This document shows, one piece after another, positions 40,585 through 48,408 of a DNA stretch of 64,000 nt. The translations under genes were made by a program, and so were the position numbers. The notes under the pieces are model-generated. The model was not told the origin of the DNA. It made no database searches and saw nothing but the letters and a program-made list of their open reading frames with translations. How positions within the stretch are numbered: position 1 is the stretch's first letter; each line of letters begins with the position of its first letter. Source of the DNA: Leptospiria bacterium (GTDB lineage Bacteria; Spirochaetota; Leptospiria; Turneriellales; CBDBES01); NCBI GenBank assembly GCA_965204465.1, contig OZ241995.1, positions 933,688 to 997,687 of the forward strand. The letters run 5' to 3'.

Positions 40585-43500
40585 ATGAAAACCAATCAAT
40601 TAAATATAAGAATACCCTTTATTTTAATAATATGGTGCTTGATCACTTTAGCCCATTGCAGTAGTGGTAAAAAGAATACCGACCCTGCTGTAGTGAGCGC
40701 CCCTGAGACATTCAACTACATCTGTACGAATGGAACCCCAGAAGAGGGTACTACCACTGTTCAAAATGCTCAACGCTGCGAATCATGCGAAAGCGGATGG
40801 ACGCTCAATACCCGCACTTTCAAGTGTGATGGTAATAGCTTCACCTGTTCTAATGGTGTAGCCGCAGATGGCATGCCTTCGACTCCAGGCGAAGCCCTTT
40901 GTATGATGTGTAACACAGGCTATCAGCTGAATAGCGATGATACAACCTGTCTTGAAAATTCCTACATCTGTAATAATGGTACACCATCAAGCGAACGTCC
41001 TCTCAACAACGGTGAAGAACAATGTACAAATTGCAATGCAGGTTATCGGCTAAACGGAGCACAATGCGAATCGATAAACTACCGTTATGTTTGTACCAAC
41101 GGTACACCAAAAAGTGGTACTAACACCACCCAAAATACCCAAAACTGTGAAAGTTGCGACAGCGGCTATGCGCTTAACCCTGTTACGTCTACCTGTGATG
41201 GCAGTAGCTATACTTGTCCCAATGGTCTACCCGAAGATGGAATGCCTACTACCGACGGCGAGGCACTCTGTGTGAGCTGCAATGACGGCTATCGGATCAG
41301 TAGCGACAAGACAACCTGTCTTGAAAACTCCTACACTTGTAACAATGGCACACCACAAAGCGGTAGGCCAATCAATAATGGTGAAGAAATCTGTGAAAGC
41401 TGCAATCCCACTTATCATCTACAAAGTGGTCTTTGCGTAGAAAATGCATATGTTTGTGCAAACGGTACACCAGAAAGCGGTGCACCTGCGGTACATAATA
41501 CTCAAAGCTGTGGATCATGCAATAGCGGATGGACACTCAATGCCGACACTATGCTGTGTGAAGGCAATAGCTATACATGTCCAAATGGTCTACCCACAGA
41601 TGGAATGCCGGCGATTCCCAATGACGAAAGTTGCGCTAGTTGCAACCCAGGCTATCGTTTGAATAGCAATGATTGTCTTGCAAACTCCTACTCCTGTCCC
41701 GATGGTACCCCCGAAAGTGGTAGACCGTCTACTAACGGCGAAAAACTTTGTGTAGCCTGTGACAGCAATTACCATCTGGAAAGTGGTCTCTGCGTAGAAA
41801 ATGCATATGCTTGTGCAAACGGTACACCAAAAAGCGGTACACCTGCGGTACACAATAGCCAAATGTGCGAAATCTGTAACAGCGGATGGACACTCAATGC
41901 AGACACCTTGCTATGTGAAGGCAATAGCTATACATGTCCAAATGGCGTAGCGACAGATGGAATGCCGGTGATTCCCAATGACGAAAGTTGCGCTAGTTGC
42001 AACCCAGGCTATCGTTTGAATAGCAATGATTGTATTGCAAACTCCTACTCCTGTCCCAATGGTACCCCTGAAAGTGGTATACCGGTTACCAACGGCGAAA
42101 AACTCTGTGCAGCCTGTAACAGCAATTATCATCTGGAAAGTGATCTCTGCGTAGAAAATGCATATATTTGTGTAAACGGTACACCAAAAAGCGGTATACC
42201 TGCAGTACATAATACCCAAAGCTGTGGATCATGCAATGGCGGATGGACACTCAATGCAGACACCTTGCTGTGTGAAGGCAATAGCTATACATGTCCAAAT
42301 GGCGTAGCGACAGATGGAATGCCGTTAACTCCCGATGACCTAAGTTGCGCTAGTTGCAACCCAGGCTATCGTTTGAATAGCAATGATTGTATTGCAAACT
42401 CCTATACCTGTGATAATGGTACTCCTGCAAGCGAACTCCCTCTCAACAACGGTGAAGAACGCTGTATAACTTGTGATCGTAACTATCATCTGGAAATTGA
42501 TCTCTGCGTAGAAAATGCATATGTTTGTTCAAACGGTACACCAGAAAGCGGTACACCTGTAGTACATAATACCCAAAGCTGTGGATCATGCAATAGCGGA
42601 TGGACACTTAATTCCGGCACCTTGCTATGTGAAGGCAATAGCTATACATGTCCAAATGGCGTAGCGACAGGTGGAATGCCGTTAATTCCCAGTGACGAAA
42701 GTTGCACTAGCTGTAACCCAGGCTATCGTTTGAGTAGCGATGATTGTCTTGAAAATTCCTACTCCTGTCCCAATGGTATCCCCGAAATAGGAATGCCGGT
42801 TACCAACGACGAAGCACTCTGTTCGCTTTGTAATACAGGCTATAGGCTTAATGGAGATAATACCGCCTGTCTTGAGAACTCCTATACCTGTAGCAATGGC
42901 GCACCACAAAGCGGTAGCCCAATCAGTAATGGTGAAGAACGCTGTGCAAGTTGCAATACAGGTTATCGGCTAAACGGAGTACTATGTGAATCGATAAACT
43001 ACCGTTATGTTTGTACCAACGGTACACCAGAAAGCGGTGCTACTACTGTCCAAAATACCCAAAATTGCGAGAGTTGCAACAGCCGTTATACGCTTAATCC
43101 AATTACATCTACCTGTGATGGCAATAACTATACCTGTACTAACGGTCTACCCGAAGATGGAAGGCCTACTACCGATGGCGAGGGACTCTGCGTGAGCTGC
43201 AATGACGGCTATCGGCTTAATGGAGATAATACCGCCTGTATTGGAAACTCCTATACCTGTAACAATGGCGCACCTGAAAGCGGTAGCCCAATCAACAATG
43301 GTGAAGAACGCTGTACGAATTGCAATGTAGGTTATCGGCTAAACGGAGTACGATGTGAATCGATAGCTTACCCTTATGTTTGTACCAACGGTACACCAGA
43401 AAGCGGTACTACCGCCATCCAAAATACCCAAAGCTGCGACAGTTGCGACAGTGGTTATACGCTTAATTCAGGTACATCTACCTGTGATGGCAATAACTAT

Positions 43501-48408: not shown

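Follow-up and report, generated by a model that had tools for sequence, protein, structure and literature searches.

The subject of this analysis is a giant gene in a 64,000-nucleotide (nt) stretch of the genome of a Leptospiria bacterium (contig OZ241995.1 of assembly GCA_965204465.1, forward-strand positions 933,688 to 997,687; hereafter the window, with positions counted from its first letter). The gene occupies positions 40585..48408 of the plus strand as a complete open reading frame (ORF) of 2607 amino acids (aa) plus stop codon, an uninterrupted 7.8-kb frame. Both position and length are exactly those given by a first-pass annotation, which had described the product as a cysteine-rich tandem-repeat lipoprotein with C-terminal domains resembling PPC (pre-peptidase C-terminal) domains. 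From N to C terminus, the protein comprises a signal peptide, a short linker, an array of four-cysteine modules and two C-terminal domains. Of its 230 cysteines (the earlier count had been ~236), 228 lie inside the modules and the other two inside the signal peptide.

The array spans aa 45-2369 (40717..47691, plus strand) and makes up ~87% of the protein length. Motif splitting yielded 57 modules, most of them arranged in A-B-C triplets, and a single-module hidden Markov model (HMM) independently arrived at the same number (57 domains, total 2927 bits). This is slightly fewer than the ~59 copies reported initially, and the unit is also slightly longer than the ~38 aa assumed at the time, measuring 39-41 aa in every module except module 51. 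What did stand up to inspection was the claim of four invariant cysteines, present in 57/57 modules with the spacing C-x17-C-x2-C-x10/12-C, within the consensus Y.C.NG.P..G.P.......C.SCN.GY.LN.....C..N. (dots marking variable positions).

The array also possesses a higher-order organization, in that three modules together form the repeating unit. In Tandem Repeats Finder, the array scores 1300-2000 at periods of 357 and 369 nt, and module identity averages 0.59 at lag 3 as compared with 0.41 at lags 1 and 2; the repetition is far beyond chance. Clustering resolves the modules into three types that follow one another in A-B-C order over ~17 triplets. The two alternating subtypes proposed earlier must therefore be replaced by three, albeit with the original distinction still recognizable in the first split of the clustering, which separates A (the GWTLN/GYTLN type) from B and C. 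One aberrant unit is found by motif splitting at aa 2061-2124 (46765..46956, plus strand). This module 51 is 64 aa long and retains its four cysteines with two loops enlarged, the C1-C2 spacing being 24 and the C3-C4 spacing 21. Placed six modules short of the tip, it might act as a hinge or represent an insertion.

Many triplets of the array are 85-93% identical to one another at the DNA level, and a segment of 1.77 kb, corresponding to ~14-15 modules, is present twice, at 42040..43810 and, offset by 2061 nt, at 44101..45871 (both on the plus strand). At the center of the two copies is a core of 1096 nt that is 100% identical (42335-43430 and 44396-45491), with flanks that diverge gradually, to 87-98% identity. 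An array of this kind might owe its length to the assembly, the gene being real and the 1.77-kb block or some of the near-identical triplets having been wrongly duplicated or collapsed. A perfect match of 1096 nt at a fixed 2061-nt offset and triplets of such high DNA identity speak for this, and our searches found no second assembly of the organism for comparison. However, an abrupt drop in identity is not seen at the core flanks, and their gradual divergence is that of a real recent duplication; in addition, reading frame and module register are preserved over all junctions, and the contig names of two relatives (ctg..._l and ctg..._c), to go by the names alone, suggest long-read assemblies. 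We therefore read the duplication as probably genuine and recent and consider an assembly origin of the array length improbable, while noting that a 1.77-kb duplication with a perfect core leaves the exact module number still to be confirmed.

The 3′ end of the gene bears a further mark of this kind. A 182-nt tandem duplication spans the stop codon, and directly downstream of the stop the final 160 nt of the gene recur as a noncoding copy (48423..48582, plus strand; 95% identity). The copy lacks a start codon and lies in a different reading frame from the gene; a match to the PPC-like profile persists in a frame +2 fragment (48390-48620). We read the copy as a probable remnant of a recombination event at the 3′ end. 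The array as a whole may have grown in place, through unequal recombination of three-module units plus that of one 1.8-kb block, and if so, its length probably varies between strains.

Growth of this type would also suit a surface protein that is variable in length or antigenicity, its near-identical repeats serving frequent recombination that alters the module number. Such a function, which is compatible with an adhesin, could draw on the very recent amplification (the 100%-identical 1.1-kb core and the triplets at 85-93%) as well as on the 182-nt tandem duplication across the stop codon. On the other hand, there is one sequence at hand, in which variation is not observed, and the ratio of nonsynonymous to synonymous substitution rates (dN/dS) between paralogous triplets is 0.20-0.42, the youngest pair excepted. 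These values indicate that the modules are under purifying selection; that is, a dN/dS of 0.2-0.4 reflects conservation and not diversifying selection. A variable surface protein is thus a tentative proposal, which we rate as rather unlikely.

Ahead of the array, the signal peptide (MKTNQLNIRIPFILIIWCLITLAH-C; 40585..40659, plus strand) ends at Cys25 in a putative lipobox with His at position −1, and a short linker of aa 26-44 (SSGKKNTDPAVVSAPETFN; 40660..40716, plus strand) leads into the first module. The N terminus has a positively charged start and a hydrophobic core of 14 residues, followed by L-A-H-C25. Of the lipoprotein signal announced by the first-pass annotation, the signal-peptide-like character and the terminal Cys25 are indeed there; the classical lipobox rule is failed at the His. 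Three relatives of the giant protein, introduced below (P0033, P0039, and P0072), show an ..IHC junction in the same place, such that a signal peptide ending in (I/A)-H-C is common to them and to the window (40645-40659). This unusual end suggests a lineage-specific lipobox with His at −1. Leptospiral lipoboxes are unusually flexible at this position, tolerating bulky or charged residues (PMC4758666). We consider the giant protein to be probably exported, lipidated at its N terminus and located at the cell surface.

As regards the identity of the module, the earlier statement that the repeat cannot be placed in a named family was borne out by profile scans. Whole protein, single triplets, N terminus and tail gave no accepted family match when compared with Pfam and NCBIfam, and in NCBIfam no model matched the giant protein at E <= 0.01. 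Below the acceptance thresholds, the best Pfam match to a single triplet (E 0.001) was the short Cys-rich repeat model DUF4215 (PF13948), which we take to be the Myxococcus cysteine-rich repeat of exported bacterial proteins. It scored 19.7 and 17.5 bits on two different triplets, with a cut-off of 27, and its alignment was partial, covering model positions 1-27 of 47.

A second sub-threshold match was to cEGF (PF12662), with 18.6 bits against a cut-off of 26.6 (E 0.002-0.02). In its second half, C-x-x-C-x-x-G-Y-x-L-x3-5-C, the module is similar to the hairpin at the C-terminal end of EGF, and cEGF is the sole Pfam model that repeatedly touches relatives (8/57, best E 4e-8). Tandem EGF rods, such as those of Notch and fibrillin, are likewise head-to-tail arrays of ~40-aa modules. 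EGF differs, however, in having six cysteines and a C-x-C motif, whereas the module has four and C-x-x-C. The variant-specific surface proteins (VSPs) of Giardia (PF03302) came closer in E value (1.5e-4) yet reached just 21.2 bits with a cut-off of 31.4. They are CXXC-rich and extracellular, as we propose for the giant protein, and membrane-anchored at the C terminus; the giant protein has no such C-terminal end and carries instead an N-terminal signal with a lipobox-like Cys. One model did exceed its cut-off, PilY2 (PF14481), with 40.5 bits on the whole protein and a cut-off of 25 bits, yet no single stretch was significant, and we rejected it as a sum of weak repeat matches. Pfam matches to RFX5 and Spectrin_3 were discarded as repeat-summation noise. 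Among the sequences of the Protein Data Bank (PDB), the module profile found just a Sushi-like 'sCNsGYxL' motif match (E of at least 0.002), and a literature search returned no description of the module or the giant protein.

The module is nonetheless far from unique to this gene. An exhaustive search with a profile of the A-B-C triplet retrieved 833 representative proteins at E <= 1e-3, of which 370 were at E <= 1e-10 and 71 at E <= 1e-30. We define the four-Cys family (profiles A3/A8) by the pattern Y-x-C-x-N-G-x12-15-C-x-x-C-x-x-G-[YFW]-x-L-x3-6-C, occurring in tandem in exported proteins. The definition fits 57/57 modules of the giant protein, and an alignment of 51 diverse triplets shows no variation at its Cys and Gly positions. 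The best 156 relatives form two groups. The first consists of 95 proteins dominated by four-Cys modules, in 68 of which the N terminus shows a hydrophobic stretch followed by Cys, as in lipoproteins. The second holds 64 Cys-rich proteins in which the module has five or six cysteines; eukaryote-type domains (F5/8 type C, MAM, TNFR) are present in some of them.

Several of the proteins retrieved (P0001, P0002, P0003, P0008, and others) are very large and protist-like, with 10-22 copies of six-Cys and sometimes four-Cys modules. A few eukaryotic-looking sequences (P0001 and P0008) use the four-Cys version. The occurrence of the module in these large proteins hints at its exchange between kingdoms.

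In the bacterial relatives, 2-13 modules (median 5) lie between the N terminus and varied extracellular domains. Among the 57 bacterial members scanned, these domains include fn3 (13), CARDB (11), DUF285 (10), GLUG (10), FG-GAP (4), and PPC (2). Since so variable a number of modules links the N terminus to such varied domains, the module appears to behave as a spacer or stalk, and the stalk role originally ascribed to the array fits these architectures. What sets the giant protein apart is scale, its module count being >4 times that of every bacterial relative within the 150 best-scoring representatives. Scanning metagenomes with the triplet profile added 3 weak loci, and cluster look-ups for ten relatives gave singletons or one two-member cluster, none of them named. 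On the 15.4-kb contig L032, which carries P0039 and has a name ending in _c, there are two genes for 816-aa proteins combining aBig_2 with modules, at 3828-6278 and 10680-13130. They are 6.85 kb apart and each is followed by similar neighbors; a surface-protein cassette may have been duplicated in tandem, or the assembly may have wrapped around.

To obtain a structural view, modules 7-9 were modeled with AlphaFold2 on an alignment of 51 sequences. The resulting confidence (predicted local distance difference test score [pLDDT] of 94.3) supersedes that of a six-module model made with in-gene paralogues as the sole alignment, which had reached a pLDDT of 60 and given an uninformative fold search. 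Modeling of a short repeat segment, one of the checks suggested by the first-pass annotation, has thus produced a confident fold. In the model, each module has a short strand at the N-G turn and three short strands around C-x-x-C, G-Y-x-L and the last Cys, with no helices. Foldseek found nothing significant for the pLDDT-94 triplet model in the PDB (best match TNFR1, E 0.083; TM-scores <= 0.34). The top shapes, none of them significant, were TNFR1 (8zui), the furin repeats of R-spondin (4c8v), the EGF domains of Pfs25/28, and EGF11-13 of Notch.

TNFR CRDs and furin-like repeats are ~40-aa, all-beta, disulfide-laddered modules of elongated rods, much as we propose for the giant protein. However, their best E values over all fold searches, 0.05-0.08, are not significant, and neither TNFR_c6 nor Furin-like gave a Pfam match in the giant protein or its triplets. 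Of the furin-like or VSP-like resemblance suggested at the outset, what remains is that furin-like, TNFR and EGF shapes are the nearest ones, with nonsignificant scores and a sub-threshold match to VSPs. The model would assign the module to the broad class of small beta-hairpin units with disulfide bracing from which extracellular rods are made, as a member without a close solved counterpart.

The cysteines themselves come in pairs throughout the family, with 4 or 6 per module; because of this, and because the family members are exported, we favor disulfides over metal binding, and two disulfides would brace each module. The opposite assumption would be that the cysteines bind metal in zinc-ribbon-like knuckles or act as redox CxxC motifs, turning the protein into a metal or redox buffer. 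There is a CxxC in every module, and faint Pfam matches to zinc-ribbon and IBR models do occur (E 0.04-0.14 in the giant protein), as does one to Zn_ribbon_4 with E 2e-5 in the relative P0022. Yet each module has one CxxC and not two, the giant protein carries an export signal, the six-Cys-module relatives include proteins with extracellular-type domains (F5/8 type C, MAM, TNFR), and the nearest structural look-alikes are disulfide-bonded extracellular modules. We consider a metal or redox function highly improbable.

Beyond the last module, the protein ends in a tail that is indeed unique, as stated before, with a length of ~238 aa (aa 2370-2607) and not ~300 aa. It contains two homologous domains. 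Domain 1 (aa 2370-2478; 47692..48018, plus strand) belongs by hhalign and BLASTP to the PPC/collagen-binding-domain type and has the motif GDIDYF. Domain 2 (aa 2479-2607; 48019..48405, plus strand), a divergent version recognized by hhalign and alignment, has GDVDFF and aligns both with domain 1 and with the domains of the relative P0018. Both motifs had been pointed out by the first-pass annotation, which also ventured the comparison with PPC domains, originally described as pre-peptidase C-terminal parts dispensable for catalysis (PF04151).

That comparison gains substance through intermediate homologues. The relative P0080 carries five domains in tandem, with a PF04151 score of 74.6 bits, and the tail matches this protein over both domains (BLASTP E 2e-12). 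With hhalign, domain 1 aligned with the PPC-type profile (A6) at a probability of 98.9% (E 1.4e-17). PF04151 domains and the tail domains have in common a D-x-H-x-N...A-T start, G-D-[IV]-D-[YF]-F, a YYI-x-V strand, and a G-x-Y-x-L end. Moreover, four-Cys modules are joined directly to PPC-type domains in P0018, P0080, and P0086, with the same C-x-x-D-x-H-x-N junction as in the giant protein. Judged by these sequence relationships, both C-terminal domains are of the PPC type. More direct routes were less productive: word-indexed homologue searches of the tail gave 0 matches with the single sequence and 2 weak ones with a profile, a search of PDB sequences with the raw tail gave nothing, scanning the two tail halves separately gave no PF04151 match, and no relatives of the C terminus were found in the GTDB genomes searched.

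The solved structures closest to the tail-domain profiles are the collagen-binding domains of ColG and ColH (5iku, E 1.4e-6; the s3b structure 1nqd, E 2e-4), the first of these matches (ColG s3a-s3b) having been made with a profile that includes both tail domains. ColG, like the giant protein, has a tandem domain pair at its C terminus. The setting differs from that of ColG/ColH and of PPC domains, as no peptidase domain was found in the giant protein with Pfam or NCBIfam; PPC-type domains without a peptidase are also seen in relatives. The collagen-binding domains of ColG bind collagen fibers in a calcium-dependent manner; the Grimontia collagenase has a PPC-containing C-terminal segment that binds collagen in the absence of calcium (PMC6168687).

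Taken together, these data lead us to propose, with a probability of roughly 55%, that the gene product works at long range as an adhesin or tether, in the form of a rod of 57 disulfide-braced modules that is anchored by lipid and bears tandem PPC/collagen-binding-type domains at its tip. In this model, the 57 beta-hairpin modules with two disulfides each would be stacked end to end, giving an elongated and fairly stiff rod whose length may be ~100-170 nm if 2-3 nm per module are assumed by analogy with EGF- and TNFR-type modules. Its far end would hold the two domains, predicted from the sequence-profile link to be PPC/collagen-binding-type beta-sandwiches, and these may bind an insoluble or polymeric ligand. 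The architecture of lipobox, modules and effector domain is, by sequence, common to the relatives. Within the same bacterial order, the Lig proteins (LigB/LigC) follow the same overall plan. In Leptospira, they have a lipobox, ~12 tandem modules and then a C-terminal domain (PMC4758666). Their modules differ, being Ig-like Big2 domains of ~90 aa without disulfides and in 12-13 copies, as opposed to 57 four-Cys units of 40 aa.

Several observations speak against this proposal. The His at −1 of the putative L-A-H-C lipobox breaks the [AGS] requirement of the classical rule, applied here as [LVI]-[ASTVI]-[GAS]-C after a signal peptide. The Pfam PPC model itself (PF04151) reached 14.4 bits on domain 1 when the 242-aa tail was scanned (E 0.075, threshold 25.9), and domain 2 is weakly PPC-like, with an hhalign probability of 77% (E 2e-5) to the PPC-type profile. 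No orthologue of the giant protein turned up in any collection searched. Finally, PPC domains also occur in places where, to our knowledge, they have no binding role.

The latter point leads to a different function, that of a structural or protective envelope part, for example a coat in the periplasm or on the surface, or a distance spacer, in which the PPC-type domains would serve folding, export or self-association. As first described, PPC domains are not needed for catalysis, and in the relatives the module is purely a connector between varied domains, both of which would suit such a part. Then again, one gene whose product carries binding-type domains in a distal tandem argues for a tether rather than a lattice former, and the tail has collagen-binding domains as its nearest solved relatives. 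A structural role is therefore an alternative that we consider doubtful, and we retain the long-reach adhesin or tether as our preferred interpretation.

The genes around the giant ORF are chromosomal housekeeping genes, including lepA, glnA, amt, trxB, glmM, a nuoG-like gene, nuoI, and dapD. The LepA of the window is ~70% identical to those of Turneriellaceae and Leptospiraceae metagenome-assembled genomes, which places the uncultured source organism within the Leptospirales or close to them. Immediately upstream, a macro-domain gene (40054-40563, plus strand), encoding an ADP-ribose-binding protein or hydrolase, ends 22 nt 5′ of the giant ORF. The two genes are possibly co-transcribed, with no obvious functional link. 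Promoter and terminator scans gave site numbers not above those of shuffled sequence, and an exact look-up of the giant protein and its macro-domain neighbor in a large assembly collection had neither on record. Downstream, at 48724-51655 (plus strand), a NuoG-like protein of just 521 aa, which has no motifs beyond Fe-S and N-terminal molybdopterin-type ones, is directly followed by NuoI and then by DapD, and no NuoH lies between the NuoG-like protein and NuoI. A transposase of the IS1182 family (26655-28196, plus strand; E 1.7e-96) is located ~12 kb upstream of the giant gene.

On the other side of the macro-domain gene, a divergently transcribed gene (37465-39918, minus strand) encodes a CDC-like, lipoprotein-like protein of 817 aa. 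It has an N terminus with ..RATGC, at least five thrombospondin type-3 calcium-binding repeats, and a thiol-activated-cytolysin domain (E 5e-26). The first-pass annotation had raised the possibility that the giant protein is a partner of this neighbor, for instance in targeting or anchoring a pore-forming toxin. The adjacency of the two genes (37465-39918 on the minus strand and a start at 40585 on the plus strand) would be in line with a partnership, as would the lipoprotein-like N termini and eukaryote-like extracellular modules of both products. However, the macro-domain gene sits between the two, the giant protein has no domain known to interact with CDCs, and 0/3 relatives viewed in their genomic context (L030, L031, and L032) have a CDC-like neighbor. 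With no link found, we regard a joint function as very unlikely.

As for the coding status of the locus, ORFs on the opposite strand within the giant gene (e.g., 43720-44280) were treated as chance ORFs, since conservation is carried wholly by the plus frame. The G+C content of the giant gene, 0.455, is above that of its neighbors (~0.37). Because the rise sits mainly at codon position 2, we attribute it to amino acid composition. At the third codon position, the value is 0.38 in the giant gene and ~0.31 in the neighbors, and with so slight an increase, horizontal transfer as read from the GC content was set aside.

Giant repetitive surface proteins and PPC domains are both well known. Exported bacterial proteins, in contrast, are rarely Cys-rich, and long rods of the EGF-like kind count as an invention of eukaryotes. 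What is new here is a module that is undescribed in the libraries searched, has a confident model without a close solved match, is found in hundreds of proteins from bacteria as well as in eukaryotic-looking ones, and reaches an exceptional 57 copies in the giant protein. At its most far-reaching, and this we offer as a speculation, the 40-aa four-Cys unit might represent an undescribed extracellular domain family common, probably by inter-kingdom transfer, to Leptospirales-like bacteria and seemingly protist proteins. The giant gene would then be an extreme expansion of it, a disulfide-laddered fiber of >100 nm that holds on to a eukaryotic host, prey or matrix via its collagen-binding-type tip domains.

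For the bacterial lineage, our analysis suggests that surface lipoproteins make general use of an unnamed four-Cys module as their spacer. The alignment, consensus and model at hand provide a ready definition of a new domain family with ~800+ representative sequences, which may also testify to an exchange of modules between bacteria and protists. The giant protein itself is a candidate long-reach adhesin with collagenase-type binding domains and offers a natural system in which to study the folding and export of disulfide-rich rods in spirochaete-like cells.

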